This document shows, one piece after another, positions 1 to 62,495 of a DNA stretch of 62,495 nt. How positions within the stretch are numbered: position 1 is the first letter of the stretch; every line of letters begins with the position of its first letter. The translations under genes and the position numbers were made by a program. Under the pieces are notes generated by a model, which did not search any database, was not told the origin of the DNA, and saw only the letters and a list, made by a program, of their open reading frames with translations. Origin of the DNA: a virus (lineage: Duplodnaviria; Caudoviricetes); the IMG/VR virus record IMGVR_UViG_3300042140_000143, positions 1-62,495 of that record. One strand, written 5' to 3'.

Positions 1-83
1 CAACGGATGCAGCGGACAGCGTATCAACGTCCTTTGGCATGGCTCGTCTCCTCATCGCTGCCGCTGATCCTGTGCGTTCTCAG
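1..83 (+). repeat. attC-like site A (truncated copy; full copy at 61946-62036)
   Basis: caacgg-ATGCAGCGG-AC...G-CCGCTGAT-cctgtgc-GTTCTCAG; identical to 61954-62036. Confidence 0.85.
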
Positions 84-188
84 TCAGAAAATCATGTCTT
101 ATACGATACGTTTTTGCCTTACCACCTTTGCGACAGCCCATCCTCCATCAACGCTTCACCCCGTGCCGTGAACCAATCGACCATGAGA

Positions 189-638
189 CTAAGCCACCTC
201 ATGTCCGTCTCCAGCAAAGCGGCGATAAATCGACAGAAGCCCTTCGCGGGCGCGGTCGGCGGCGCTGTTTGTTGAGTGTTCCAGAAGTCGTATCGCCGCA
301 CGCACGCAATCACGCTCTTCGTCGGTAAGCGCTGGCCTCGCGTAGAGCGGAGCGACATCCCAGTTCCATTCGTCGGCGGCAGCGCGAGCCTGCTCGTAGA
401 GCGAGTAGACCGCCGACGATTCGCTGCCATCGGCGGCGAAGGCTACCCATGCGACAGGCTGCGGCCTATCAGTTTCGCGTTTCGCGAAAGGTCGCAACCT
501 CTCAAGCAGGCTGGAGATATGCGGCCCGTCGTGCATTGCAACGTGGCCGACAACGGCAACGTATTCCAGTGCGTCAAACTCGGCTTCGGTGATGTTCATT
601 CCATATTCCAGAACGCGATCCCGGCGGGTTCTCGTCAC
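189..638 (-). CDS. Cassette protein with PVAW...PLY and LTDEER modules (Ead/Eaa-like phage accessory protein)
   Basis: 149-aa ORF with QPVAW, PLY and LTDEERD motifs shared with neighbouring cassette genes; start uncertain. Confidence 0.7.
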   Translation of the reverse strand: MTRTRRDRVLEYGMNITEAEFDALEYVAVVGHVAMHDGPHISSLLERLRPFAKRETDRPQPVAWVAFAADGSESSAVYSLYEQARAAADEWNWDVAPLYARPALTDEERDCVRAAIRLLEHSTNSAADRAREGLLSIYRRFAGDGHEVA

Positions 639-825
639 CGCTTTATCAGTGCGGTCGATGCCCGCCGGGATCGCTGTGTCATGTTTCGTAGCAAAAAAAC
701 TGCACCCACCGCCGCCCCGCGCTGCCTAAGAGCATGAAGCCCGTGAGCCGCGTGGCACGCAGCCGTTCAGCAGACCGCAGGGCGACGATGGGCCATCGCA
801 GCCCACGCATGGTGGATGCGTCAAG

Positions 826-928
826 ACCGGGTGGCGGGAATCGAACCCGCGCCTTCGCAATCTGGTTGGTACTGCCGGGCGTGGCCCGGTGATCCCGTTT
901 CGATGCGCTACCATTACGCTACACCCGG
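826..928 (-). ncRNA. tRNA-like RNA with an expanded 49-nt anticodon domain
   Basis: Acceptor stem CCGGGTG/CACCCGG, TA, D-arm GCGT-AATGGTA-GCGC, T-arm GCGGG-TTCGATT-CCCGC; no canonical 17-nt anticodon arm. Confidence 0.7.
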
Positions 929-937
929 ATACGTTTT

Positions 938-1028
938 GTGAGAACCAGCCGATGCAACGGACGGCCCTGCGTCGTCATGTGTCATGGTGAGTCCTCGCGT
1001 GGCCGCCGTTGATCTTCCGCGTTCTCAC
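938..1028 (+). repeat. attC-like site B
   Basis: GTGAGAAC-N6-ATGCAACGG-AC...G-CCGTTGAT-N7-GTTCTCAC. Confidence 0.88.
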
Positions 1029-1342
1029 TCAGATCTGGCGAGCAGTGCCGCCATAACATCCGACCGCATCCGGTCTACCTTTTTACCAGAAAGCCGCACT
1101 ATTTTTGCAGCGTAGGCAATCGCCTCCCGCTCCTCGTCGGTGAGCGTGGCGTCCATGGTCACTGTCACGTTGCCGTCGCATACCGACAGCGTGGCGTCCT
1201 GCTCTGCTATGCGGCGAATGGCTTTTTTGAGCCGCTCATTTTCGGCCCGCAGGTCGTACACCTCTTGCGGCGTCCAATCGGCATCGCAGCCGCACTCGGA
1301 TTCCGAATGGGCCGCACACTTGCATCCTTTGCCGTCAGCCAT
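1025..1342 (-). CDS. Cassette protein, Cys-rich N-terminus and LTDEER C-terminal module
   Basis: AAGGAG RBS upstream of ATG 1342; stop TGA lies in R' of attC-B. Confidence 0.8.
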   Translation of the reverse strand: MADGKGCKCAAHSESECGCDADWTPQEVYDLRAENERLKKAIRRIAEQDATLSVCDGNVTVTMDATLTDEEREAIAYAAKIVRLSGKKVDRMRSDVMAALLARSE

Positions 1343-1353
1343 GCTTGCTCCTT

Positions 1354-1405
1354 GTGAGAACCACGCGATGCAGCGGACGGAGCCGCTGATCGCTGGCGTT
1401 ATCAC
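1354..1405 (+). repeat. attC-like site C (minimal, 3-nt terminal loop)
   Basis: GTGAGAAC-cacgcg-ATGCAGCGG-AC-gga-G-CCGCTGAT-cgctggc-GTTATCAC. Confidence 0.88.
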
Positions 1406-1752
1406 TTCAATCGCTCCAGAACGCTCCGCAGCGTATCGGCAGCGACACGGGATCGTGTCACCGGCATCGACTCGCACTCATCAATGGCGACTGCAACGGC
1501 CGCCCGCTCCTCGTCGGTGAGCCTGCCCCACGACCGCAATCGCTCAATCTCGGCCGCCGCCTCATGGCAGTCGAAATAGTGATCCTCGTCATCGGTGCCG
1601 ATCATGTTGGCCCGCGTCTGCCGCAGGCGGGTCACAATATCGCCGGTGCCCTCGCCGGGTCGGCTTGCCGCTTTATCGGTGCGGTGCCTGTCGGCGTCTG
1701 TACGGGCTATCGCCGCCGGCACGGCGTCATGATTTGTGTCAGAAAAACTCAT
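1402..1752 (-). CDS. Cassette protein with EAAAEIERLR and LTDEER...LERL modules
   Basis: ORF ends in R' of attC-C; shared C-terminal motif. Confidence 0.75.
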   Translation of the reverse strand: MSFSDTNHDAVPAAIARTDADRHRTDKAASRPGEGTGDIVTRLRQTRANMIGTDDEDHYFDCHEAAAEIERLRSWGRLTDEERAAVAVAIDECESMPVTRSRVAADTLRSVLERLK

Positions 1753-1768
1753 GCGGTTTTCTTTCGCT

Positions 1769-1860
1769 CTGAGAACCACGCGATGCAGCGGACCCGCGAT
1801 GCCGCCGTCTGGCTGTGGTTTCGTCAGCGGTCGCGGGCCGCTGATCGCTGGCGTTCACTG
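1769..1860 (+). repeat. attC-like site D
   Basis: CTGAGAAC-cacgcg-ATGCAGCGG-AC...G-CCGCTGAT-cgctggc-GTTCACTG. Confidence 0.88.
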
Positions 1861-2202
1861 GCTACTCTGATTCAAGATTTCCGCTGCCGCCAGCCTCCAT
1901 CGCAATCTCGCGTTCTCTGCGTGGAGAGCATTCAACTCCATCTCCATGACCTTGTATGCCTCTTGTCGAGACACGCGATCGCAAGCCGTGCGAATCTCAT
2001 ACCACTCGTTCCACGCATACAGCGGGACGACCTTTCTAACTCTGTCGGCAAATCGCCCCCGCAATCCGTCAACCTCAACCTTGTCGCGGCACAGCGGCAT
2101 AATGCTGCCGATGCCGTCAACCTCAACGATGTATGCCGCAGGAGCGACGCCCGCCAGTGAACCACGCGATGCAGCGGACATCTCATCTACCTCTTTCGTC
2201 AT
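1855..2202 (-). CDS. Cassette protein (PAAY...VVPLY module)
   Basis: RBS (AGGAG) and ATG inside attC-E; stop in R' of attC-D. Confidence 0.8.
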   Translation of the reverse strand: MTKEVDEMSAASRGSLAGVAPAAYIVEVDGIGSIMPLCRDKVEVDGLRGRFADRVRKVVPLYAWNEWYEIRTACDRVSRQEAYKVMEMELNALHAENARLRWRLAAAEILNQSSQ

Positions 2203-2245
2203 GGTTGCTCCTGTGTTCGATGCCGCTGATCGCTGGCGTTCTCAG
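2155..2245 (+). repeat. attC-like site E
   Basis: CAGTGAAC-cacgcg-ATGCAGCGG-AC...G-CCGCTGAT-cgctggc-GTTCTCAG. Confidence 0.88.
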
Positions 2246-2553
2246 CCTAATCGTTCCAGCATCCTGCGCAGCGTATCAGCAGCCTTCCTGCTTCGATCCT
2301 TGTCGTCCGGCTTCAGATCGTCCCAGCCGACGCATAGCGTGTCTGCTGCCCACTGAATCGCGCCCAACTCCGCATCAGCAGGAGGCTCTTGCCGGTACAG
2401 CGGCACAACATCGACGGGGCCGCCGCCCGCCCATTCCTGCGCGTCATACGCTCGGATAGCGACGTAGACAATGCTGCCGCCGTGTTCGACCGCCCACGCC
2501 GCAGCGTGAGAACCAACGGATGCAGCGGACAGCGTATCAACGTCTTTCGGCAT
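2242..2553 (-). CDS. Cassette protein, paralog of 61658-61993
   Basis: MPKDVDTLSAASVGS N-terminus encoded by attC-F; ends LERLG. Confidence 0.8.
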   Translation of the reverse strand: MPKDVDTLSAASVGSHAAAWAVEHGGSIVYVAIRAYDAQEWAGGGPVDVVPLYRQEPPADAELGAIQWAADTLCVGWDDLKPDDKDRSRKAADTLRRMLERLG

Positions 2554-2596
2554 GGTTCGTCTCCTTATCGCTGCCGCTGATCCTGCGTGTTCTGTG
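2506..2596 (+). repeat. attC-like site F (near-identical to A)
   Basis: GTGAGAAC-caacgg-ATGCAGCGG-AC...G-CCGCTGAT-cctgcgt-GTTCTGTG. Confidence 0.88.
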
Positions 2597-2597
2597 G

Positions 2598-2852
2598 CTA
2601 CCAATCAATCTCTGGAGGGGCAGGAAGCGGCATCCAGTGGGTTGGCCAGTTGGGAACCGTCCACCCGTAAAGCGTGTCGATCCATTCGCCGTCTCGGCAG
2701 TAGCCGAAAACCACTCGCCCGCCAAGCCACGCCAGAACCACTTTGCCTGCGTCGGGCAGCCGCTTCGTCACCGGAATCCAACCATCCGGTGTCGCCGGAT
2801 AGTTCGCCACAGAACCACGCATTGGAGCAGACCCGTCAGCGTCCTGTGTCAT
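2598..2852 (-). CDS. Cassette protein, DUF551-like
   Basis: WIPVTKRLP...THWMPLPAPP signature; RBS and ATG within attC-G. Confidence 0.8.
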   Translation of the reverse strand: MTQDADGSAPMRGSVANYPATPDGWIPVTKRLPDAGKVVLAWLGGRVVFGYCRDGEWIDTLYGWTVPNWPTHWMPLPAPPEIDW

Positions 2853-2894
2853 ATCAACGTCTCCTCTCGGGCTGCTCAATGCAGCCGTTCTCAC
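2808..2894 (+). repeat. attC-like site G (divergent L boxes)
   Basis: CACAGAAC-cacgca-TTGGAGCAG-AC...G-CTGCTCAA-tgcagcc-GTTCTCAC; compensatory changes keep pairing and the extra G. Confidence 0.85.
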
Positions 2895-3074
2895 ATTCTG
2901 GAATCTCTAAATGCCCCCGCCCACCCGGTGCGCTACCCATTGTCTGGACGCATTCGTCTAGGGGCTCGCCTCCACCCGCGTAGGCCGGTGACTGCCGCTC
3001 TGCATTCCGCTTTATCAGTGCGGCGCTGGAGCCGGGTGGTGACGTTGTTTCACTCATAATACGGTTTGTCATGG

Positions 3075-3302
3075 TCACTTGTGCTGCGGCACCCTCGTTG
3101 GCTTGCCGGGATGGTCGATCCCGTACATGGGATTTCCCATCACCCGGACCTCGCTGGAATCGACATGGACGACGGCACCCGTGTCGAACTGGTGGACGAG
3201 CCAGACCGTGTTGATGCTGGGGCCGTAGTCGATGAGGAACAGGGCGTGCCCCTCGCCCAGAGGCGTCGTGACCCAGAGCGGCGGGTTGCACTGGTGGATC
3301 AT
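3075..3302 (-). CDS. Hypothetical phage protein
   Basis: 75-aa ORF translationally coupled to the upstream gene. Confidence 0.65.
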   Translation of the reverse strand: MIHQCNPPLWVTTPLGEGHALFLIDYGPSINTVWLVHQFDTGAVVHVDSSEVRVMGNPMYGIDHPGKPTRVPQHK

Positions 3303-4570: not shown

Positions 4571-4894
4571 AGCACGCCTCCGTGCGGGCAGGCTCCCGCG
4601 CCGACGATCCTCTGGATAGGCTCACCTATTGGTGGGGGTCAATGATTTTGGGAAACTTTTGGCGGGGGGAACGTAACTAGGTGCGTGCGGGCGTTGGGGG
4701 GCTCAGGGGTGGGCCATCTATATGCAGGCCCCGCCGCTGAAAGCAAGGCACCAATCCTTCACGCTGTCCGTCGATACCGTGAACCGACCCGCCGCGACCC
4801 GTTTTGATCGCGGTCCATCCGCTGCGGCGTCTGTTCTGTGTCGGAGCGACGACGACGGGTGATCGTCGTGCTACCGACGAGGAGCATGTGAACC

Positions 4895-5167
4895 ATGAAA
4901 ACGCTCGACGGGCGGCCCCTCGATGTCGAGATTCAGTACGGCAAGTTTGCGGTGTCGATCAACTCGGAGGCCGCCGAAGTCTGCCTTCACCTCCCGCAGT
5001 ACCCGTACCTGCACCGACTGTTCAAGAGCGACGATCTTGACCTGCTGTGTGCTGCGTTCACAGAGGCTTGCGGGCTGGTGGACGCGGGCTTTGACCTGCA
5101 ATCGGATGTGCTGCATTGGACGGGCCGTTCGTTCGCAGTCTGCCCGCTGTCTGCGGTTCGCCGCTGA
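4895..5167 (+). CDS. Hypothetical early protein
   Basis: GAGGAG RBS; flanked by the 15-bp repeat. Confidence 0.7.
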   Translation: MKTLDGRPLDVEIQYGKFAVSINSEAAEVCLHLPQYPYLHRLFKSDDLDLLCAAFTEACGLVDAGFDLQSDVLHWTGRSFAVCPLSAVRR

Positions 5168-5248
5168 TTTCCCCGTTGCGGGGTCCGTCTCTTGTCGGCG
5201 GCACGTTGCCGCCAGCCGTGTCCAGTACCCCACGAGGAGGATCGTTCC

Positions 5249-5431
5249 ATGTACGAGGTCGAAACGGCTGCGGTCACGATGGATTGCAACGACGTGTGGC
5301 AGTTCCGCACGGAGCGTGAGGCTCGGGCGTTCATCAACGAGCGTGCCGACGGCTCCCGCGTGTTCACGCTCCTCGACCCGGATGGCGAGGTCGTCGTGCG
5401 GTCTGCCTTCCCGGTGCTGATGGTGGCGTGA
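5249..5431 (+). CDS. Hypothetical early protein
   Basis: GAGGAGG RBS; ATG 5249. Confidence 0.7.
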   Translation: MYEVETAAVTMDCNDVWQFRTEREARAFINERADGSRVFTLLDPDGEVVVRSAFPVLMVA

Positions 5432-5536
5432 TTTGCCGCTGCGGAGTCTGGATGGTAGCGGCATCGGCTCGTGTCGGTGCCGCCTCCACCCGCACTTCGC
5501 GGGATGTGTTCGATGGTTCCACTGAGGAGACTTGCC

Positions 5537-5977
5537 ATGATTGCCCAGTTCTTGAAGTTCCTGTCCGCGACCGATGCGAAGGCCCACGCTGCCGCTGTCG
5601 CGGAATTGCAGACGATGGCCGTTCCCGCCCCCGTGAAGAAGCGGAAGGGCAATCCCGAAGCCCTCCGCAAGTGGCGGGAGTCGCAGAAGGCCGGGAAGCC
5701 CGCGACGGTCGTGTTCCCGAAGGCCGCGAAGAAGGCCGCCAAGCCCGCGAAGAAGGCCCGCAAGACGAAGGCGGTCAAGGCTGCGGCCGATGGTGCCACG
5801 CGATTCGGCGGGCTGGAGTGCCTGCCCTACGACGGCGGCGTGGTTCTCCGTCCCGCCGGGCGGCGTCGTGGCATCGGGTTCCGCGACTACGCGGAGTTCT
5901 GTGCGTTCGTGAACGCCTGCCGCACGGATGACGCCCACAAGGCCGGTGCCTTCATCAAGGCCCACCTCGCCCGCTGA
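5537..5977 (+). CDS. Basic Lys/Ala-rich protein (histone-H1-like tract)
   Basis: GAGGAG RBS; KAAKKAAKPAKKARK tract. Confidence 0.75.
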   Translation: MIAQFLKFLSATDAKAHAAAVAELQTMAVPAPVKKRKGNPEALRKWRESQKAGKPATVVFPKAAKKAAKPAKKARKTKAVKAAADGATRFGGLECLPYDGGVVLRPAGRRRGIGFRDYAEFCAFVNACRTDDAHKAGAFIKAHLAR

Positions 5978-6108
5978 TCGACCGCTGCGGCGTCTGGTTT
6001 GTGAGGGCCGACGACGGTTCGGGCAGGTTCGTAGCCTGCCCCCTCACTTCGCCCATCGCAACTTCGCGGTGGGCGTTTTTGTTTCCACGTTCCCATGAGG
6101 AGTCTGCC

Positions 6109-6342
6109 ATGAGCAATCCCGAAATCACCGCCGTTCGCAACAGTGAAAACCGCGTCGAGGCGGTCGTGTTTCCCGGCACGGGAGGTTTCTACTTCCTCGA
6201 CATGCGGAGTGCGGCCGAGCCCGTCGGTCCCTTCTCGTCCCGCGAGCGTGCGGCCGAGTCCGCCGACATCACGGTGGAGATCGACCGCGAGATCGACCGG
6301 CTGCTGACCCCGATGGTCGGCCGGGACCGCTGCCTGCGGTAA
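6109..6342 (+). CDS. Hypothetical early protein
   Basis: GAGGAG RBS; ATG 6109. Confidence 0.7.
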   Translation: MSNPEITAVRNSENRVEAVVFPGTGGFYFLDMRSAAEPVGPFSSRERAAESADITVEIDREIDRLLTPMVGRDRCLR

Positions 6343-6432
6343 ATCACCGCTGCGGCGTCTGAGTTTCACACTGCGAACGGGGCCAGTCGTCACGGTGGCG
6401 GCTGGCCCCGTCGCGTTTCACGAGGAGTGCCA

Positions 6433-6783
6433 ATGTACGAGCCGCTCGACAATACCGCCCCGCTCTGGCCCGACGAGTGCGACCACAACTCGCTCGACCC
6501 CACGTCATTCGTCGGCACGTTCAAGATGCTTCACGGGGAAGGCCGCCGCGAGTTGGTGGTGGACGTGTACGTGTTCGATGCGTTGGGTAACACGATGGCA
6601 CAGGGAATCTGCCTGCGGTACGGAACCGAACACCACTACTCCACCGTGCGGGTGAACCAGATGTTCGACCACCCAATCGGCATGGAGTACGACGGCGGGC
6701 TGTTTCGCTGCGCCCGCACGTTCCTGCTGTCGCGTGGCACGTTTCGCTGGCAACCGGAGACAGCGGCCAGCGAAGCCACCTAG
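6433..6783 (+). CDS. Hypothetical early protein
   Basis: GAGGAG RBS; ATG 6433. Confidence 0.7.
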   Translation: MYEPLDNTAPLWPDECDHNSLDPTSFVGTFKMLHGEGRRELVVDVYVFDALGNTMAQGICLRYGTEHHYSTVRVNQMFDHPIGMEYDGGLFRCARTFLLSRGTFRWQPETAASEAT

Positions 6784-6875
6784 TTCGCCCGGCGATTGCC
6801 CGCTGCGGAGTCTGTTCGGTAGTGGCCGGTCGCACTGTGTGGCTGGCCCGCTTTTCACCACGAGAGGAGTGCGTC

Positions 6876-7241
6876 ATGCACAAAGAGATCGCAGACCAAT
6901 GGGTCGCTGCACTGCGAAGCGACGAGTACGGGCAGACCTACGGGTATCTCCGCGAGGAGTACGAGCCCGGCAAGTTTGCCTACTGTGCGTTGGGCGTGCT
7001 ATGCGACCTGCACCGCAAGCACACGGGCGGCAAGTGGATAAATGTCGTCGGCGAGTACAGGTATCTCGGCCGCAAGGCCGAGTTGCCGGAAGCCGTCGCC
7101 GCGTGGGCGGGAACGTCCATAAATCCCGACGCCTTTTGCCGTGAGTTGGGAGGCTACGAGCCAATCTCGGAGATCAACGACGGCGGCATGTCGTTTCCGC
7201 ACCTCGCGGACTTGATCGAGGAGCAGTGGCAGACCGTGTGA
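6876..7241 (+). CDS. Phage protein of the WVAALRS...CALGVLC family
   Basis: GAGGAG RBS; paralog at 10044-10433. Confidence 0.75.
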   Translation: MHKEIADQWVAALRSDEYGQTYGYLREEYEPGKFAYCALGVLCDLHRKHTGGKWINVVGEYRYLGRKAELPEAVAAWAGTSINPDAFCRELGGYEPISEINDGGMSFPHLADLIEEQWQTV

Positions 7242-7321
7242 TTTGCCGCTGCGGAGTCTGTTTCTCGGCCGGCGGCACGTTGCCGTCGGCGGTCCCTTGT
7301 CCCTTGTTCTGAGGAGTTCCC

Positions 7322-7492
7322 ATGCGCACGCATGTCACCACCACCAACCCCCGCCTCATGCACTTCATCTCGCTTGCCAGCGTGGCACGCGAGGTGGGTG
7401 CGAAGTCGCAGCGTCACCTTCTGGCCGACCTCCGCACGCTCACCCATCGTGAGCGTCGTGAGGTGGCCGACCTCGTGAAGAAGGAGGGCTGA
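7322..7492 (+). CDS. Small hypothetical protein
   Basis: GAGGAG RBS; 56 aa. Confidence 0.55.
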   Translation: MRTHVTTTNPRLMHFISLASVAREVGAKSQRHLLADLRTLTHRERREVADLVKKEG

Positions 7493-7495
7493 TAC

Positions 7496-7717
7496 ATGCC
7501 GCACTTCTTGGTCGCACGCGACCGTGCCTACTGGGTGCGAGAGGTGATGCACATAGACGCCGCCACAGAGGAGGAGGCGGAGAACCAGTTCTACGAAACC
7601 TTCGACCCGGAACTGGAAATCGTCGGGCCGTTTCGTTTCGGCAACGCAACCCACGAAACCCCGCTCGAAGTGACTGCGTGCGAACCGCCGTCCCCTCCCG
7701 CTGCGGAGTCTGCGTGA
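7496..7717 (+). CDS. Hypothetical protein
   Basis: GGAGG RBS; 73 aa. Confidence 0.6.
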   Translation: MPHFLVARDRAYWVREVMHIDAATEEEAENQFYETFDPELEIVGPFRFGNATHETPLEVTACEPPSPPAAESA

Positions 7718-7833
7718 TGGGCAACAAGTGGGCCGATCAGCGGTAGGTCACCGCTGCGGCGTCTGGTTTCCGGCATGGGCCGTCCCGTTGTGGGGCGGCC
7801 CTTTCTTTTTCCCCCTTCACTGAGGAGTGAGGC

Positions 7834-9081
7834 ATGAGCGAGGACAACGAGGTCGAGTACGACTACTATGGGTTCGATGGCAACGGCATCCACCGTGACA
7901 CCGGCACGGAGTACGACCCCAACGGGTTCGATGCTGGCGGCATCCACAGCGTCACGGGCACCGAGTTCAGCAACACGACCCGCCGCACACGCGACGGCGA
8001 GCAGCGGGACTCGGAGGGCTACGACTACGGCGGCTACGACGAGGACGGGTACGACCGTGACGGGTACGACTCCGACGGGTACGACCACTGCGGCCACGAC
8101 CCCAGCGGCAACTCACGCTGCGAGAACGGCGAGTGCTACGACGACTCGTGCGAGTGCCACGAGTCCGACTTCGACTCGCAACTGGACGAGTACAGCACCC
8201 GTGCCCATCGCAAGCACACGTGGTCGGCGGACCCTGCTCTTGGCCCTTCGTACATGTACGCCGGGCACGAGATCGAGATGTACTCGGACGACGAGGACAT
8301 CGCGGACGTTGAGTACACGCTCGCCCAAGTGGACGGCCTGTACGCCAAACTCAACCCGCTGACTGGCAACGGCAGGTGTGCCATCGCCAAGCACGACGGC
8401 TCGCTGGAGGACAACGGGCCCGGCGGGTTTGAGTTGGTGACCGTGCCGCTCACGACCGAGCAGGTGTACGGCATCTTCGGGTCGTTCAAGACGCTGGGCA
8501 ACGGGCGCTGCTCCGCGTGGGACAAGGGCGACGACGTTGGGCACCACATCCACCTGTCGAAAGCAGCCGTCGGGCCGCTCACGCTGGGCAAGTTGCTCGT
8601 GTTCCTCAACGCCGAGCCGAACCGGAAGTTCCTTGAGTACATCGCCGGTCGGCCGGCGGGGTTCAACAAGTTCAGCCGCAAGAAGGTGACTGACCAAGAG
8701 AACCGCGACCGCTACGAGGTTCTCAACATCACCGACGAGACGGTCGAGTTCCGCCTGTTCAAGAGCAACCTGTACGGCAAGGCCATCCTCAAGAACCACG
8801 AGTTCGCGGTGGCTTCCGTGCGGTTCTGCGAGCAGGCGGCACACGGGTTCGGCGTGGTCGAGAACTCCACCGACCCGCTGCACTTCATCAACTTCCGCAG
8901 GTTCGTCGCCGCCAATCGCAGGACGTACCGTTACCTGCACGAGTTCATGCTCACCCACCCGGAGATTCGCGGCGGCTACTGCAACAACAGCGGCCTGCCT
9001 GAGAGCGTTGCCAAGCCGAAGGAACGCTCGCCCGTGTTCAACCTCGTCCGCACGTCCATGTCCGCCGTCACCGGTGCCTGA
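7834..9081 (+). CDS. Putative amidoligase (COOH-NH2 ligase type) with N-terminal GYD/GFD repeats
   Basis: GHEIE, HDGSL, GFELVT, HIH, RY..LN and TVEFR motifs. Confidence 0.78.
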   Translation: MSEDNEVEYDYYGFDGNGIHRDTGTEYDPNGFDAGGIHSVTGTEFSNTTRRTRDGEQRDSEGYDYGGYDEDGYDRDGYDSDGYDHCGHDPSGNSRCENGECYDDSCECHESDFDSQLDEYSTRAHRKHTWSADPALGPSYMYAGHEIEMYSDDEDIADVEYTLAQVDGLYAKLNPLTGNGRCAIAKHDGSLEDNGPGGFELVTVPLTTEQVYGIFGSFKTLGNGRCSAWDKGDDVGHHIHLSKAAVGPLTLGKLLVFLNAEPNRKFLEYIAGRPAGFNKFSRKKVTDQENRDRYEVLNITDETVEFRLFKSNLYGKAILKNHEFAVASVRFCEQAAHGFGVVENSTDPLHFINFRRFVAANRRTYRYLHEFMLTHPEIRGGYCNNSGLPESVAKPKERSPVFNLVRTSMSAVTGA

Positions 9082-9106
9082 CCCACCCCACTAAGGAGAC
9101 TTCCGC

Positions 9107-9955
9107 ATGTGCCTTGCCATCTACAAGCCCGCCACCACCCAGCCCGATTGGTCCGCCTACCGCAACGGCTTCGCCGTGAACGACGATTCGTGGGGGTTCG
9201 CCGTCGTCGTTGACGGCACGCTCGTCACCCGCTGCGGTATCGGCAACTTTGAGGAGTTCCGCGAAGCCTTCAGCCCGTACGCCGACCGACAGGCCATCAT
9301 CCACTTCCGATGGGCCACGCACGGCAAGAAGGACACGGGCAACTGCCACCCGTTCATGGTGAGCGACTCGCTCGCCGTGATCCACAACGGCGTGATCTCC
9401 ATCAAGTGCGACGTGGACAAGGATCGCAGTGACACTTGGCACTTCAACGAGTTGGTTCTCAAGCCGCTGCACGCTCGGGACGAGGACTTCTACCGCCGCA
9501 GCGAGGTGGTGTACACGCAGCAACTCGCCCACTCCGGCAGCAAGTTCGTGTTCCTGCGGGCGGACGGAGACTACTGCATCTGGAACGAGGACGATGGCGA
9601 CTGGTCGCGTGATGGTCACTGGTACAGCAACGACTCGCACGAGGGGTCGTACTACCGCAGCATCGGCTACGGCCTGACCTCTCGCACCACGACGGCCCCC
9701 AAGACCGAGCGTTCGTGGGTCGAGGTCGAGGACGGCAAGTGGAAGTACGTGGACGAGGACAACTCCGCGTCCGCCTGCCGCACAGCGTACGACCGCATGG
9801 CCGACGAGCAGGAGGAGGAGGACCGCGAGGATTCGTTCTACACCAACATGCGTGTGGATGACTTGCTCGCCTACGGGTTCAGTCGCAAGTGCTTGGCGGA
9901 AGTTCAGGACATGCTCGGCCACGACGGCATCGAGTTGCTGCACGACGCCATCTGA
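9107..9955 (+). CDS. Class II (Ntn) glutamine amidotransferase
   Basis: N-terminal MC, HFRWATHG, NCHPF, HNG, SDT. Confidence 0.88.
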   Translation: MCLAIYKPATTQPDWSAYRNGFAVNDDSWGFAVVVDGTLVTRCGIGNFEEFREAFSPYADRQAIIHFRWATHGKKDTGNCHPFMVSDSLAVIHNGVISIKCDVDKDRSDTWHFNELVLKPLHARDEDFYRRSEVVYTQQLAHSGSKFVFLRADGDYCIWNEDDGDWSRDGHWYSNDSHEGSYYRSIGYGLTSRTTTAPKTERSWVEVEDGKWKYVDEDNSASACRTAYDRMADEQEEEDREDSFYTNMRVDDLLAYGFSRKCLAEVQDMLGHDGIELLHDAI

Positions 9956-10043
9956 TTTCGCCGCTGCGGAGTCTGGTTCCTGCGGGGCCGGTGGCACTGG
10001 GTCACCGGCCCCGCTTTCTTTCTGACCAAGAGGAGTGTCTGAG

Positions 10044-10433
10044 ATGAAGCGAGACGTTATGGAGAAGTGGGTTGCCGCCCTGAGAAGCGGCGATTACATG
10101 CAGGGGTATGGCCGCCTGAAGCAAGCAGGTGGAAGCGAGCCATTGTTTTGCGCGCTCGGCGTCCTGTGCCAAGTGCATCACGACGAGACGCACTCGGCAT
10201 CGTGGTCACACCAGCCAATCAACGATTGCTGGTCTTACGGACGCTCGGCAATTCGGTCGTGCGACCGCGACAGGTATTCCGAGTGCCTGCCAACCTGTGT
10301 GATGGACTGGGCAGGCATCTCCTCCCCGAACGCACGACTGGATGCGACTCGCAGCGTCTCGTCCATCAACGACGACGGCAAGGACTTCTCCACCATTGCC
10401 GACGCCATCGAGGCTCGCTGGAAAGCCCTGTAA
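10044..10433 (+). CDS. Phage protein of the WVAALRS...CALGVLC family
   Basis: Paralog of 6876-7241. Confidence 0.75.
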   Translation: MKRDVMEKWVAALRSGDYMQGYGRLKQAGGSEPLFCALGVLCQVHHDETHSASWSHQPINDCWSYGRSAIRSCDRDRYSECLPTCVMDWAGISSPNARLDATRSVSSINDDGKDFSTIADAIEARWKAL

Positions 10434-10595
10434 TTCCCCGCTGCGGAGTCTGTCTATACGGCAAGCAAGGAGGCAAGCCATGCACCACTGGACCCATGCT
10501 GAAATCGAAATCTTCCTCGCCATGTGCTTCGTCGCCATGAAGGCGCTGGCACGGTGGGCGAAGTTGGACTGACCCCTCACACAAGGAGAGTGACT

Positions 10596-10922
10596 ATGGC
10601 TACCAAGACTCGTCGTCGCCTGCGTTTCCCCGTGACCGAGTTCATCGTCCAGCACAGCGAGGCTGCGGCGATGGGCCTGAAACTGCACGAGTTCGCCAAG
10701 CGGGCGGGACTCACGTACTCGGCCGTGACCATGCGGCTGCACGCCCTGCGGCAGCGTGGCGTCGTGCTGCCACGCCTCAAGCACGGGCTGCTCGGCAAGC
10801 CCGGCAATCGCAGCGGCAAGGGCACGGGCAAGATCGCCCGCTCTGTGGTCGTGGCCGCCGGGCGCACGGCCCGCATCACGAACCGGTCCAGCAAGTCCAT
10901 CACCATCACCATCGGAGGCTAA
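10596..10922 (+). CDS. Putative helix-turn-helix protein
   Basis: AAGGAG RBS; LHEFAKRAGLTYSAVTMRL. Confidence 0.6.
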   Translation: MATKTRRRLRFPVTEFIVQHSEAAAMGLKLHEFAKRAGLTYSAVTMRLHALRQRGVVLPRLKHGLLGKPGNRSGKGTGKIARSVVVAAGRTARITNRSSKSITITIGG

Positions 10923-10927
10923 TCACC

Positions 10928-11224
10928 ATGACAAAGTTCTGGAACGTGACAGTGCAACTTCACGATGACCGGCCGCAGGACGCCATGACGTTTGTGTTCG
11001 CTGATGAACGCCGCGCAAAGGCCATCATGAACCAATACTCGCGCCTGTTTCCGATGTACTTCTCTCTCGAAGTCAAGCCGTGTGACGCATGGGGGCGGGT
11101 CTGGCCGCAGCAGTATGTGTTTTGCAGCGTGTGCGGACAGCCGGAGATGGAGCCGGAGTTGTGCAGCCACGCCCGCAAGACGGACCACTGGTTTGCCTCA
11201 ATGGACGGAGGATCAAGGACATGA
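10928..11224 (+). CDS. Hypothetical protein with CxxC
   Basis: GGAGG RBS. Confidence 0.6.
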   Translation: MTKFWNVTVQLHDDRPQDAMTFVFADERRAKAIMNQYSRLFPMYFSLEVKPCDAWGRVWPQQYVFCSVCGQPEMEPELCSHARKTDHWFASMDGGSRT

Positions 11225-11439
11225 GTGCGTTCTGGTTTCACTACAACAAGCCCGCCTCTCAGGCGGCCGGGCACCCGGTGATGACAGTGCATCACAAGGG
11301 CGCCTGTCTCTTGGTCCGCAACGTGGTGTGTTCCGTCCCGGTGCGTAGCCGGGAGCGGAACTCACAGCCCCATGTCGTGATCGCCGGGCGCGGCAACGTC
11401 CGCATCGCAGGCGACACGGCTTACATCGAAGGAGAATGA
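11221..11439 (+). CDS. Hypothetical phage protein
   Basis: ATGA-coupled; FWFHYNKPAS motif. Confidence 0.65.
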   Translation: MSAFWFHYNKPASQAAGHPVMTVHHKGACLLVRNVVCSVPVRSRERNSQPHVVIAGRGNVRIAGDTAYIEGE

Positions 11440-11705
11440 CCATGCCATTTGCAGACGCCAGGTATCCGCGTGCCGCCAGCCGGCAGGTATCCACCTATAC
11501 GGGCCTTACTGCCCATGTCGTGCAACTCACCAACGGCGAGCGATTGCTCGTCGAGGAGAGCGAAGACGGCCTGAGTCTTGCCGTGTGCGTCCGGAACTCT
11601 GACGCCCCCGACCTGTGGGTCTGCCGCATCGAGGATGCCGGCGTGATGGCGCTCACCTACAGCGACGACGCATGCTCGCGTCTCGCAAGGAGGTCGTGTG
11701 CCTGA
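11436..11705 (+). CDS. Hypothetical protein
   Basis: ATGA-coupled ORF. Confidence 0.6.
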   Translation: MTMPFADARYPRAASRQVSTYTGLTAHVVQLTNGERLLVEESEDGLSLAVCVRNSDAPDLWVCRIEDAGVMALTYSDDACSRLARRSCA

Positions 11706-11988
11706 CCTGACCCCACGCGAGCGAGAGATTCTCACCCTCATCGCACGCTCGATTGACGCCAATGGATACCAGCCGTCGTACCGGGAGATCGCCGCCCACT
11801 TCGGGTGGACCGGACTTGGCTGGTTGCAGTACCTCGCCCGCAGGATTGCGAGCAAGGGGCACGCACGGGTGATCGGAGCCCGAGCGTGGTCGTTCGACTG
11901 GAAGTCTTACCTCAAGGAGCAGAAGCATGACGCTGAAAGAACTGATGGATCGCGTACTCGCCGTGTTCCCCGACGCCATGTTCGATGA
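11698..11988 (+). CDS. LexA-like winged-HTH DNA-binding protein (no peptidase domain)
   Basis: LTPREREIL...GYQPSYREIAAHFG resembles the LexA N-terminal domain. Confidence 0.75.
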   Translation: MPDLTPREREILTLIARSIDANGYQPSYREIAAHFGWTGLGWLQYLARRIASKGHARVIGARAWSFDWKSYLKEQKHDAERTDGSRTRRVPRRHVR

Positions 11989-12091
11989 GGCGCACGACGG
12001 CGAGGTGATCGTGTTCACGGGCAAGCGCGCCCACCCGGAGGAGGACTGGAACGAGGGGTCGCTCCAACTCCAGCCCATCCTTGACGACTAG
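11927..12091 (+). CDS. Small hypothetical protein
   Basis: AAGGAG RBS; MTLKELMDRVL... Confidence 0.5.
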   Translation: MTLKELMDRVLAVFPDAMFDEAHDGEVIVFTGKRAHPEEDWNEGSLQLQPILDD

Positions 12092-12110
12092 ACCTGTTCA
12101 TAAGTACACT
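12081..12110 (+). promoter_or_regulatory. Candidate sigma70 promoter
   Basis: TTGACG-N18-TACACT upstream of ATG 12128. Confidence 0.5.
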
Positions 12111-12127
12111 CCCACAGGAGAACGGGT

Positions 12128-12304
12128 ATGCCATACCCCACTACTACCGTGACACTCACACCCAGCGAGATCGACCTCATCATCACGGCCCTTCACGAAT
12201 CGGCGGAGGACCGCGAGGAGTTTGACGAGAGCGAGCAGGCGGCGGCCTTCGCCATCCTGCAACGGCGGTTCGTCAAGGCACAGACACAACTCATCGCTCA
12301 CTGA
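12128..12304 (+). CDS. Small hypothetical protein
   Basis: AGGAG RBS; 58 aa. Confidence 0.55.
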   Translation: MPYPTTTVTLTPSEIDLIITALHESAEDREEFDESEQAAAFAILQRRFVKAQTQLIAH

Positions 12305-12315
12305 AAGGAGCAACC

Positions 12316-13194
12316 ATGACCCCGACAACTCTTACCATCGGCGCTGGCTTGGGCGGCATCTGCCTGCTCAACACCAAGTCCGTGCTGCGTGACAGGCTGT
12401 TCGCCGCTGCGGATGCGGTGGGCTGCGGCCGTTTCGTTCCTGCCCAGCCGGCCCGCACGACCGTGCTGCGGGACTGCATGAAGCAGGTGGCCGACAACCT
12501 GTATGGCCGGCAGCGAAAGCGGCACAACGTGGTGCGGCAACTGGACGACCCGGCCTGCTTTGAAGTGGTGCGTGTGGTGCCCGGCCAGACGCAGAACGAC
12601 TACCAGTTCCTTTACTCCGCGACCATCGACTCGCACTGGGGCGTTGCCATCTTGGAGTACAGCACGAGCGGGCCGCCCGGCATGGCCGTGCTGCATGCCC
12701 TCGATCCCATGATCGTGCAGATGCGTGACTACCTTCCGTCCAGCGTGGTCGGCCAAGTGGTGGTCAAGATGCTGCGCTCGTGGCATGCAACGCCACTCAA
12801 GGACGACGGCGGTGCGTGGTTCCTGTCGGGCCAGCACCTTGACGACTACCGCCAGTTCGCCACGATGGTGCGCGGCCCCCACGCGGACGGCCCCCGCTTC
12901 CATGTCACCCAGTTTGAGATCGGCTCCGATCCCGACACGGTGATGCACGTCCTCGACCAACTCGGGCGGGAAGTCCAGGCTGGCATGGACGAGATCATGC
13001 AGGACGTGATGGAGGCCAGCGGCGGCATGTCCGACCGCTCCATCAACGTCCGTCTCGGAAGGGCCGACAAGTTTCTCGACAAGGTGCGGACCTACGAGCA
13101 GGTTCTCGGCAAGCCCATGCCCGACCTGACTGCTGCCATCGAGCAGGTCAAGCAGGCAGTGGCCGTCAATCGGCTGCTCGCTGCCGCCGTGTAG
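12316..13194 (+). CDS. Hypothetical protein upstream of the MoxR/VWA pair
   Basis: AAGGAG RBS; 292 aa; helical C-terminus. Confidence 0.75.
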   Translation: MTPTTLTIGAGLGGICLLNTKSVLRDRLFAAADAVGCGRFVPAQPARTTVLRDCMKQVADNLYGRQRKRHNVVRQLDDPACFEVVRVVPGQTQNDYQFLYSATIDSHWGVAILEYSTSGPPGMAVLHALDPMIVQMRDYLPSSVVGQVVVKMLRSWHATPLKDDGGAWFLSGQHLDDYRQFATMVRGPHADGPRFHVTQFEIGSDPDTVMHVLDQLGREVQAGMDEIMQDVMEASGGMSDRSINVRLGRADKFLDKVRTYEQVLGKPMPDLTAAIEQVKQAVAVNRLLAAAV

Positions 13195-13301
13195 TTTCCC
13201 CGCAGATTCACCGCTGCGGCGTCTGTTCGTTAGGGGAACGGGGTAGCATCGTGCTGCCCCGTCCCCTGCCCTATTGGTTCCCCACGAGGAGAGTCCCTCT
13301 C

Positions 13302-30688: not shown

Positions 30689-31504
30689 ATGACCAGCCTC
30701 CGTGCCTTGATTGAGCGTTACCTGCAATCCCGATGCGTCAGCGCGGGCTACCGCGCCAACCTGAGAACCCTAGCCCGCTCCTGCAAAACGATGACTGTCC
30801 CAGCCGTCAACAGGCACCTGACTCGCCGCATGTCTGAGGTCAAGCCGATCTCGGTTGATTCTGACAGGCGCATGATCGTGAGCGTGTGGAGGTGGGCCTA
30901 CGAAACCGGCTTAGTGGATTCGCTGCCGCGTGGACTCGTCAAGATCAAAGTGCCTCGACTGCCCACGAAGGCATGGACTGTAGAACAGTGCTGTACGGCT
31001 GTCAAGGGGACTTACGAGCGGACTGCCATCATTCGCCAGAAGGGCGTCACGGAGGGCGAGTTGCTCCGCTGCTGGATACTGCTAGGCTACGAAACTGGGG
31101 CAAGGCAGGGCGACTTGTGGGAGATGCGCGACTCCGACTTTATCGACGGGGCTGTTCGGTGGGGACAGCACAAGACCGGCGAGCCGCACGTCAAGATTCT
31201 CAGCCCTGCCTGCATGAAGGCCGTCAACGACATGCTGGCGCGCTCGCCAGATGGGCGCGTGCTGGGGTGGGTGATGTCGAGTGGTGGCGGACGCAGGAAG
31301 ATGAAAAAATACCTCGCCTCCCTGCGGCTATCGGGGTCATCAAAGTGGCTGCGGCGTAGCGGGGCCACCCACATCGAGATGGAACATCCCGGCAAGGGGC
31401 GTCTGCATCTTGGTCACAAGACGCACGGGCTGGCCGAGCGTTGCTACATCGACTGGTCGCAGGTCAGGAGGGACATCCCAAGCACGCCCGTGCTACTCAA
31501 ATAG
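30689..31504 (+). CDS. Tyrosine recombinase (phage integrase family)
   Basis: YETGAR..DL, HKTG, WLRRSGAT, LGH, ERCY; lone + strand gene between replication and virion modules. Confidence 0.88.
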   Translation: MTSLRALIERYLQSRCVSAGYRANLRTLARSCKTMTVPAVNRHLTRRMSEVKPISVDSDRRMIVSVWRWAYETGLVDSLPRGLVKIKVPRLPTKAWTVEQCCTAVKGTYERTAIIRQKGVTEGELLRCWILLGYETGARQGDLWEMRDSDFIDGAVRWGQHKTGEPHVKILSPACMKAVNDMLARSPDGRVLGWVMSSGGGRRKMKKYLASLRLSGSSKWLRRSGATHIEMEHPGKGRLHLGHKTHGLAERCYIDWSQVRRDIPSTPVLLK

Positions 31505-61623: not shown

Positions 61624-61663
61624 ATTAGGCTGCGAACTGGCAGCCTAATTCTTGTTCTCAGCC
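61624..61663 (+). other. attI-like head site of the cassette array
   Basis: ATTAGGCTGC-N6-GCAGCCTAAT hairpin, then TCTT-GTTCTCAGCC; a GTT core with no attC arms. Confidence 0.55.
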
Positions 61664-61993
61664 TAGCCGTTCCAGCAATCCCCGAAGCGCCACAGCGTCA
61701 GCCGCCGCAGCCTTGTCACCAAATAGTCTCGCGTCCTGCTCTGCCCCCTCCAGCGCCTCCCGAATCGCCGCTCGCTCCGCTGCCGTAAGGGTTGGAGGCG
61801 GCGTCAGGTACAGAGGCAGAATGTCCTGCTCGCTCCTGCCGTTGTGCCGTGCGCTTGCCTCTGCCCACTTTCGCTGTGGATGTACCGACACCGCCCGCGT
61901 GCGGCTGCTGACGAGTGCCGGATTGCCGACCGACCAAGCAACCGGCTGAGAACCAACGGATGCAGCGGACAGCGTATCAACGTCCTTTGGCAT
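61658..61993 (-). CDS. First cassette protein (PVAW...PLY and LT..ER...LERLG)
   Basis: RBS and ATG inside attC-A; stop in the GTTCTCA core at 61654. Confidence 0.8.
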   Translation of the reverse strand: MPKDVDTLSAASVGSQPVAWSVGNPALVSSRTRAVSVHPQRKWAEASARHNGRSEQDILPLYLTPPPTLTAAERAAIREALEGAEQDARLFGDKAAAADAVALRGLLERLG

Positions 61994-62036
61994 GGCTCGT
62001 CTCCTCATCGCTGCCGCTGATCCTGTGCGTTCTCAG
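61946..62036 (+). repeat. attC-like site A (full copy)
   Basis: CTGAGAAC-caacgg-ATGCAGCGG-AC...G-CCGCTGAT-cctgtgc-GTTCTCAG. Confidence 0.88.
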
Positions 62037-62044
62037 TCAGAAAA

Positions 62045-62290
62045 TCATGTCTTATACGATACGTTTTTTGTCGGCCCCGCCCCGCCTACATCAGTGACCG
62101 ACGCGGTGCGTGGGCCTTCGACGGGAGCAGGGCCGACGTTCGGGATGGCAAGCCGCATGGCGGCCTCAATCATTTGAGTGGCGCGGCCGTGCTCTGGCTG
62201 GTCGCAAACATCCATCAGAGTGTCGCGGTAGTCCTGCGCACAACTGACGCAGAACAGGATGGCCTCGCATTCTTCGGCGGTGAGTGTCAT
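62045..62290 (-). CDS. Alternative cassette protein
   Basis: MTLTAEECEAI...; ATGA-coupled to a 22-aa leader starting at 62355 inside attC-B'. Confidence 0.65.
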   Translation of the reverse strand: MTLTAEECEAILFCVSCAQDYRDTLMDVCDQPEHGRATQMIEAAMRLAIPNVGPAPVEGPRTASVTDVGGAGPTKNVSYKT

Positions 62291-62307
62291 GTTTTTTCGC
62301 AGAAAAA

Positions 62308-62398
62308 CTGAGAACCAGCCGATGCAACGGACGGCCATGCGTCGTCATGTGTCATGGTGAGTCCTCCGGTGGCCGCCGTTGATCTTCCGCGTTCTCAC
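62308..62398 (+). repeat. attC-like site B' (allele of B)
   Basis: Same as 939-1028 with 3 internal substitutions. Confidence 0.88.
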
Positions 62399-62495
62399 TC
62401 AGATCTGGCGAGCAGTGCCGCCATAACATCCGACCGCATCCGGTCTACCTTTTTACCAGAAAGCCGCACTATTTTTGCAGCGTAGGCAATCGCCT

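Follow-up and report, generated by a model that had tools for sequence, protein, structure and literature searches.

Integrons are regarded as a bacterial device. In phages, the hyperplastic regions of T4-type genomes hold promoter-plus-stem-loop "mobile regulatory cassettes", which are not attC-like and are thought to use homologous recombination. The closest described systems are the phage CALINs, that is, groups of attC sites with no integron integrase. In the part of their study considered here, Qi, Rajabal, Ghaly, Tetu and Gillings (2023, Front Microbiol, PMC9892861) obtained 3 complete integrons, one In0 element and 17 CALINs from 10,705 NCBI phage genomes, required a minimum of two sites for a CALIN, treated the phage CALINs as rare passengers, and found that IntI1 recombines five of six attC sites from virulent phages. 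Thus, the claim of an earlier sequence-only reading of the DNA described here, that such arrays are undescribed in tailed phages, is out of date.

The window analysed here is the whole of the tailed-phage record IMGVR_UViG_3300042140_000143, a linear-class IMG/VR sequence of 62,495 bases (CheckV completeness 98%, 64% G+C), whose proteins include a portal protein, a helicase, an ATPase, an HNH endonuclease and large virion proteins. It carries an array of eight complete attC sites and one partial site at the contig start, all on the + strand (1-2893 and 61947-62397), co-oriented and spaced 300-950 nt apart. A CALIN is defined by at least two clustered, co-oriented attC sites with no integron integrase (IntI) nearby (PMC4889954), and this is what the window holds; in the absence of an IntI from the record it is not a complete integron. 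The array is, therefore, a CALIN in an uncultivated freshwater tailed phage. The reading that we favor, and consider likely to be right, is that it combines attC sites of a planctomycete type with reversed, self-translating cassettes, which a host IntI would exchange in trans at G/TT (the slash marking the proposed crossover).

Sites of the array

The sites were delimited with a strict finder, defined as AAC, a 6-nt spacer, a 9-nt L'' box whose third base is bulged, a fully complementary 8-nt L' box, a 7-nt spacer and GTT. On the 62.5 kb, it returned eight sites on the + strand and none on the - strand, with no extras even at seven of eight pairs. The left-arm pattern occurs seven times on the + strand and is absent from the - strand, from a backwards control and from 100 shuffles. 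The seven sites of the sequence-only reading (A to G) were all recovered, both by reading the sequence and by the strict finder. An eighth complete site, B' (62309-62397), was missing from its list, and bases 1-82 are a second, cut copy of A. The lone GTTCTCAG that it had noticed at 61654 is also present, behind a 26-nt perfect palindrome, and this GTT box is at most attI-like. The sites are listed below with the coordinates given by the strict finder and the scores to the covariance model R1, which is described in the next section.

61624-61660, + strand: array start; 26-nt perfect palindrome (61624-61649), then TCTT, then a lone G/TTCTCAG box without attC arms
61947-62035, + strand: attC A; strict 61951-62031; R1 37.8 bits
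62309-62397, + strand: attC B'; strict 62313-62393; R1 35.5 bits; three loop positions differ from B
1-82, + strand: attC A, second copy; R'' cut off by the contig start; G/TT at 76/77; R1 18.3 bits at 5-70
939-1027, + strand: attC B; strict 943-1023; R1 30.8 bits; ATGCAACGG/CCGTTGAT variant
1355-1404, + strand: attC C; strict 1359-1400; R1 43.4 bits; mini form with a 3-nt loop
1770-1859, + strand: attC D; strict 1774-1855; R1 69.2 bits; G/TT at 1853/1854
2156-2244, + strand: attC E; strict 2160-2240; R1 45.0 bits
2507-2595, + strand: attC F; strict 2511-2591; R1 33.0 bits
2809-2893, + strand: attC G, the last site of the array; strict 2813-2889; R1 50.6 bits; TTGGAGCAG/CTGCTCAA variant

A hairpin similar to the array-start palindrome, followed by GTT, was also seen ~400 nt ahead of the first attC of another locus (L024).

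A planctomycete integron as independent reference

Viral and bacterial collections were scanned with the 15-base left-arm pattern, and the counts given from here on for these loci are among the matches listed (116 viral and 120 bacterial loci). The bacterial matches to this pattern were mostly due to chance; the full element is present in 15 of the 120 bacterial loci listed, 7 of which come from Planctomycetota metagenome-assembled genomes (MAGs). The Pirellulales MAG G004 encodes a bona fide integron integrase at C6:716-1660, within the open frame 512-1663 (TIGR02249, 465.5 bits against a cut-off of 265), and a geometry-only finder, in which the phage L boxes were not used, identified 12 co-oriented sites at C6:2072-13693, 0.4-12 kb downstream of intI. 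These sites have 6/7-nt spacers, the bulged third base of L'', a length of 80-83 nt and R boxes such as GAGAAC/GTTCTCC. Moreover, both L-box variants of the phage are found among them, ATGCAGCGGAC/CCGCTGAT and the rarer TTGGAGCAGAC/CTGCTCAA (that of site G), and compensatory changes occur at 16 of the 20 predicted pairs within this array.

The covariance model R1 was built from those 12 sites alone and run on the whole window with filters off. Unlike the covariance model of IntegronFinder, which, in the part of that paper considered here, was built from mobile-integron sites (PMC4889954), R1 derives from one chromosomal integron. Three of its 20 pairs are mis-specified (AAC was set against columns 82-84, GTT being in 85-87), the other 17 coming from RNAalifold. 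The sequence-only reading had proposed an attC covariance model as a check, and with R1 as a stand-in all eight full sites were recovered at 30.8-69.2 bits (E 5e-17 to 2e-6), every one on the + strand. The partial site follows at E 0.0075, the best unrelated match in the window has 12.3 bits (E 0.35), and the reverse strand gives at most 20 bits, which is the score of the reverse of the best site. As a model made from bacterial, intI-adjacent sites finds exactly the sites of the window and in the orientation proposed for them, the attC identity has independent support, and we conclude, as far as sequence and predicted fold can tell, that the sites of the window belong to a planctomycete-type family of integron attC sites. 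R1 also matches 29 of 151 sampled genomes of the phylum of G004, with 26-28 matches in three of them.

On a side note, an integrase and an attC array are found at both ends of contig C6 of G004, with the full intI (716-1660) and an array on the + strand at one end (L252, C6:1-14000), and a partial intI (401832-402359) with an array at 395807-401017 on the - strand at the other (L258, C6:394000-404635). The two may be one integron split by assembly, or two integrons.

Geometry, fold and covariation of the sites

The geometry described in the sequence-only reading, GAAC-N6-ATGCA[G/A]CGG-AC-loop-G-CCG[C/T]TGAT-N7-GTT, is borne out, and so are its compensated variants; site B, like B', carries ATGCAACGG/CCGTTGAT, and site G carries TTGGAGCAG/CTGCTCAA. 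Each of the eight full sites has outer R''/R' boxes with AAC...GTT and an L''/L' inverted repeat with eight of eight pairs, in which the third base of L'' is bulged; a second unpaired base follows L''. The left spacer is 6 nt and the right one 7 nt long in all eight and also in all 178 strict-finder sites of the phage loci and the window together. Among these 178, the bulged base is G in 173, the "AC" after L'' is present in 173 and the G before L' in 178. The loop ranges from 3 nt (site C) to ~40 nt, and site lengths in the phage loci cluster at 41-50 and 77-83 nt.

Folding of the bottom strands, the second check that had been suggested, gave for all eight sites, as single-stranded DNA, an outer stem, an asymmetric internal loop and an inner stem that carries two single-base bulges on its 3' arm (z-scores -1.7 to -3.95). 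The central spacers pair partly in these folds. Covariation was assessed on 134 phage sites matched by the model (129 distinct). Pairing in their L helix reaches 93.1%, and changes on both sides are seen at 16 of 17 pairs; the covariation score is 0.290, versus 0.086 for shuffled alignments (none of 500 reaches 0.290) and at most 0.065 for slid partners. "Helix 1" of R1 is only 30.8% paired because of the mis-set AAC columns, and the outer boxes were thus checked separately: AAC is at its expected position in 133 and GTT in 132 of the 134 matches.

Reversed cassettes with translation signals inside attC

Every cassette gene is encoded by the - strand and runs antisense to the attC top strand; the genes are listed here in array order.

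61658-61993, - strand: c1, 111 aa; starts in the loop of attC A; stop TGA in the lone R' box
62045-62290, - strand: c2, 81 aa; a DUF3800-VIII motif (62071-62136) overlaps its 3' part
189-599, - strand: c2', 136 aa, no family; in cassette 77-1021, the alternative to c2
1025-1342, - strand: c3, 105 aa; starts past attC C, not in its loop
1402-1752, - strand: c4, 116 aa; starts past attC D
1855-2202, - strand: c5, 115 aa; Shine-Dalgarno motif and ATG in the loop of attC E, codons 8-15 from L'' and R''
2242-2553, - strand: c6, 103 aa; starts in the loop of attC F
2598-2852, - strand: c7, 84 aa, DUF551 (PF04448, 43.3 bits, cut-off 22); starts in the loop of attC G

A cassette gene ends at the TGA of TGAGAAC, the bottom-strand reading of the R' box. 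Sites A, E, F and G each carry in their loop a Shine-Dalgarno (SD) motif and the ATG of the next gene, the first 10-15 codons being drawn from the loop, L'' and R''. Over the seven long sites, the count with a ribosome-binding site and start codon in the loop is five. In B and B' the SD and ATG of the loop open a short frame only, and at sites C and D the start codon of the gene lies past the site. If the crossover takes place at G/TT, each cassette would therefore bring its own translation start and stop.

DUF551 is a family typical of phages. Of the cargo, described in the sequence-only reading as phage accessory genes, this is the one protein in eight with a family; for the other seven, no Pfam or PHROG family was found at E<=0.01 beyond two or three sub-threshold matches. 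Relatives of the cassette proteins in other phage loci often match only in part, hence these proteins are mosaics of shared modules.

The same counts were made for the 178 sites of the phage loci and window and for 81 sites in bacterial arrays from 4 genomes. A bottom-strand ATG or GTG in the loop that opens at least 40 codons is present in 97 of 127 long phage sites versus 16 of 79 bacterial ones, and of those starts, 89 in phages and 2 in bacteria have an SD-like motif upstream. The antisense open reading frame (ORF) is clearly the longer one in 59 of 115 phage cassettes and in 5 of 67 bacterial cassettes; the sense ORF is clearly longer in 17 of 115 and 52 of 67, respectively, with 39 and 10 ties. 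Mini sites (41-50 nt) account for 51 of 178 phage sites versus 2 of 81 bacterial sites. The reversed design is general in the phage contigs and rare in the bacterial arrays of the same site type.

Given where the start codons lie, the hairpins might instead be RNA signals of the leftward mRNA, acting in translation control or processing, with the likeness to attC being secondary. The bottom strand is indeed the mRNA strand, 89 of the 127 long phage-locus sites have an SD and start in the loop, and such a role could coexist with one in the DNA. However, the same family stands beside bacterial IntI genes, where 52 of 67 cassettes carry their genes in sense orientation and a loop with SD and start is limited to 2 of 79 long sites, so that the fold is conserved there without that RNA use. 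Also, the mini sites lack a start codon and yet keep the full geometry, and no RNA family of Rfam matches the sites. We consider this explanation very improbable, and its strict form, a pure RNA hairpin, was rejected on these grounds.

Spread and turnover of the cassettes

Among the 116 IMG/VR loci listed, at least 62 have the full element; one or more strict sites are present in 61, two or more in 46, three or more in 29 and five or more in 9, and none has strict sites on both strands. The reversed design of the window recurs in at least 61 IMG/VR loci. R1 gives 163 matches in 100 loci. The array is present in freshwater or lake metagenomes as well, in 20 runs that belong to 11 studies. A blastn search of bases 1-3300 against 50,697 phage records returned no match.

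The region had been predicted to be hypervariable, and the comparison with related phage contigs that had been proposed for it shows that cassette content differs at the same place. Two loci (L079 and L076), with structural proteins mostly 85-98% identical in amino acids to those of the window, carry entirely different cassettes after the same conserved gene for a small membrane protein. The two contig ends are a further case of alternative cassettes. Bases 1-115 are identical to 61954-62068, and 939-1125 equal 62309-62495 except at 967, 997 and 998, which all lie in the loop of attC B. Bases 116-938 bear no relation to 62069-62308. The differences are thus confined to 116-998, that is, to one cassette slot with its G/TT at 76/77 and 1021/1022, and the contig ends look like a circular or permuted genome that was assembled through two alleles.

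Contigs of four metagenome runs were aligned to bases 1-3300 at 90% likeness, an approach that speaks for presence only, the uncovered parts (X15, X17) not being evidence. In both X1 and X7, one contig joins 115 to 939 and another follows the window across 115, which is consistent with the coexistence of both contig-end alleles. In X17, a 479-nt contig joins the array-start palindrome and TCTT directly to base 1021, so that c3 comes first and c1 and c2 are missing. Contigs of X7 and X17 enter at exactly 1853, the G of GTT, from a different attC. Loose contig ends at R'' starts are expected of any repeated element.

The palindrome of the X17 contig is the exact reverse complement of 61624-61649 (loop flipped), and the same TCTT follows it. 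Members of the site family from bacteria and from phages are found together in a single habitat (lake samples X1 and X7). At the joints 1800>1380 of these two samples, attC sites with phage arms have a loop like that of planctomycete MAGs (e.g., L229). Tandem duplication as the sole origin of the array was discarded, since the same cassettes occur in unrelated contigs and the same sites in bacterial integrons.

To place the breakpoints, homology ends were collected from 62 oriented arrays (456 unique high-scoring segment pairs of at least 150 nt and 88% identity), a given combination of locus, site and offset entering the count a single time. The left ends number 112, and 22 of them are at -3 to -1 from the first T of G/TT and none at -9 to -4, 24 are at -21 to -10 (the conserved L' and spacer), 9 on the loop/L''/R'' side and 48 far from a site. 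The 108 right ends comprise 33 at +1 to +5, 9 on the loop/L''/R'' side and 46 far ones. Breakpoints thus cluster at G/TT, and because both arms are about equally conserved, a site-specific crossover accounts better than homologous exchange for the bias toward the R' end. The breakpoints and the metagenome junctions at G/TT are indirect signs of a putative recombination by an integron integrase.

Enzyme, host and proposed mechanism

The absence of an adjacent IntI, as stated in the sequence-only reading, extends to the whole 62.5-kb record, in which TIGR02249 gives no match at E up to 10. Also, no IntI above the cut-off was found in any of 10 other array-bearing virus records, 7 of which are at least 90% complete. 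The window does encode one candidate of another kind:

30689-31504, + strand: divergent tyrosine recombinase-like gene; PF00589 at 17.4 bits (cut-off 27.1), match to lambda integrase at E 0.003

This gene has no IntI signal, lies 31 kb from the array as a lone + gene among - genes, and is probably the lysogeny integrase of the phage. The phage group may be temperate. One related record is flagged as a provirus.

Several points weigh against an exchange of cassettes by a host IntI at G/TT. The R boxes (GAGAAC/GTTCTCA and variants) do not fit, beyond AAC/GTT, the 7-nt purine/pyrimidine consensus of classical attC R boxes; the same departures (GTTCTCC, GTTCTGC) occur among the 12 sites beside the Pirellulales IntI, alongside classical-looking boxes, and we have treated them as variation of the family, not as the failure of a defining feature. 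For about 45% of the homology ends, the nearest site is far away; the arrays were picked via the phage's own left-arm pattern, and locus pairs are not independent events. The G/TT box is a gene boundary too, as it holds the stop, and selection for intact genes alone would draw breakpoints there. The two contig-end cassettes share 38 nt beyond the left G/TT (77-115), so this pair alone does not fix the crossover, and several metagenome joints (e.g., 83>2507, 1024>2871 and those that go back) are short-sided or in repeats, unreadable as circles or excisions, and were not used. All five near-complete relatives searched encode one ordinary tyrosine recombinase (PF00589, 4 over the cut-off), never adjacent to the array, so that another enzyme is possible. 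On the side of the host, the 574-aa structural protein has no prophage match in 301 sampled genomes of G004's phylum, a result that is uninformative on the host. Eleven proteins (8 cassette and 3 flanking) have no tblastn match (E<=0.01) in arrays from 5 genomes, a small sample, and none in 131 other bacterial loci, again a small sample and no proof of absence.

Part of these points would suit a relic, in which sites descended from attC no longer undergo site-specific recombination and turnover is due to homologous or illegitimate exchange between the arms plus selection for intact genes. Each arm has ~23 nt of near-identity in many sites, the 24 left ends within the conserved L'/spacer leave the crossover unplaceable, and some ends are at R''; the 38 nt shared past G/TT by the alternative cassettes, the mosaic make-up of the cassette proteins and one X17 contig with c3 beside a D-like site instead of C go in the same direction. 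The distribution of the ends speaks otherwise, with 47 and 42 in the R'/L' arm versus 9 and 9 on the loop/L''/R'' side of equally conserved arms, and with 22 left ends exactly at -3 to -1 and none at -9 to -4. In addition, many compensatory changes have left the bulges, the spacer asymmetry and the pairing intact, a sign of continuing selection on the fold. We give the relic a small chance of being right.

Alternatively, the attC-derived sites could be worked by the phage tyrosine recombinase (30689-31504 or its counterparts), without involvement of a host IntI. The window carries such a gene, each of the five near-complete array-bearing records has exactly one PF00589 match, 4 of them over the cut-off, and homologues of the window enzyme are found in two of the five, at 30% and 27% identity. 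Against it, the gene is 31 kb off in the window and non-adjacent in all five relatives, it does not match the integron-integrase model, one integrase per temperate phage is ordinary, and the site family sits beside true IntI genes in bacteria. The chance of this explanation is slim. As for the cutting enzyme, our ranking places a host IntI acting in trans first, because the sites belong to a family that flanks true IntI genes, then the phage recombinase, then a relic with homologous exchange.

Under the favored reading, a host integron integrase would act in trans on the folded bottom strands during infection or lysogeny, which is plausible from the type of the sites, and would excise, insert and exchange cassettes at G/TT, yielding a plug-and-play accessory region. 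A cassette would begin with the TT of one GTT box and end with the G of the following one, with its gene antisense. Having its own translation signals, it could be expressed wherever it is inserted in the leftward operon of the phage. Three parts of the scheme are inferred, namely that a host IntI is the catalyst, which host is involved and what the cargo does. No cassette is shared with the bacterial arrays examined, so exchange with host integrons is conjectural at most; exchange, if happening, may be mainly among phages. A wider proposal, to which we give somewhat less than an even chance, is that freshwater phages of a broad group, with Planctomycetota as their possible hosts, run a phage-only, back-to-front cassette pool on host integron machinery, in which attC supplies the ribosome-binding site (RBS), the start and a common N-terminal leader. 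Such a cassette would be expressed on entering a phage operon, whereas capture by a host integron would leave it antisense to the cassette promoter. The mini-attC sites of ~41 nt, which nearly all sites of the bacterial arrays examined exceed in length, would be part of the same system.

Other elements in and near the array

Three structured elements lie inside the cassettes of the A-B slot.

62071-62136, - strand: DUF3800-VIII RNA motif in the c2 cassette; 61.5 bits, gathering score 40.2
711-786, - strand: DUF3800-VIII RNA motif in the c2' cassette; 43.4 bits, gathering score 40.2
826-928, - strand: tRNA-like element in the c2' cassette; RF00005, 52.3 bits

Each alternative cassette of the slot thus has one copy of the DUF3800-VIII motif, with no DUF3800 gene adjoining. 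The tRNA-like element has canonical acceptor, D and T arms, and 43 nt replace the 11 model positions of the anticodon arm; ARAGORN calls no tRNA in the window, this element included. The short ORF opened by the start codon in attC B extends into this element. Three units contain a small hairpin, CCGCTTTATC[A/G]GTGCGG (640-656, 1670-1686 and 3008-3024), two copies being inside cassettes and one just past the last attC. Between + genes of the early region (4819-13232) there are at least 7-12 copies of a second family of repeats, CCGCTGCGG[C/A]GTCTG plus extended flanks, which may be a promoter, operator or terminator of the phage.

Comparison with known systems

One attC family is common to planctomycete-type chromosomal integrons and many phage contigs, and in the latter it goes with a distinct cassette architecture and mostly unknown cargo of phage type. 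If a host IntI shuffles these cassettes, phages would be using a host recombinase for the exchange of their own accessory genes, and hyperplastic phage regions would gain a concrete mechanism. The cassettes would also be a new source of small phage genes, candidates for host-takeover or anti-defence factors, recoverable by attC-targeted methods. The attC type may give a clue to the host of uncultivated phages. Moreover, with attC overlapping the 5' end of the gene and not its 3' end, the reversed design is relevant to the question of how cassettes arise.

The phage CALIN as such is a known kind. As in those of Qi et al., going by the part of that paper considered here, attC arrays surround small cassettes in tailed phages that have no IntI of their own. 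The cassettes of TJE1 and PH101 are oriented as in bacterial arrays (PMC9892861), whereas the genes of the window are all antisense; the window also differs in its 8-9 sites, in the RBS and start within attC and in the mini-attC class of 41-50 nt. Neither the reversed cassette with translation signals in attC and the mini-attC class, nor the match to a planctomycete-type family and its spread over many uncultivated freshwater phages, was found in the literature searched, where Qi et al. alone address phage CALINs, though the supplementary tables of Qi et al. might list such cases. As for the definitions of IntegronFinder (Cury et al. 2016, PMC4889954), to the extent of the part considered, the R and L boxes, unpaired spacers, variable terminal structure and extrahelical bases of attC are all found in the window, arranged as in a CALIN.

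The sedentary chromosomal integron of the Pirellulales MAG is alike in L-box variants, 6/7 spacers, position of the bulge, length (80-83 nt) and R boxes of the GAGAAC/GTTCTC type. It differs in having its own IntI and none of the cassette proteins of the window, and the bacterial arrays examined differ as a whole in orientation (52 of 67 cassettes sense, 5 of 67 antisense) and in their near lack of mini sites (2 of 81). With the mobile regulatory cassettes of T4-type phages, the array shares small accessory genes set between conserved structured elements that carry expression signals and are the boundaries of shuffling; what sets it apart from them is that the boundary element here belongs to the integron attC family.

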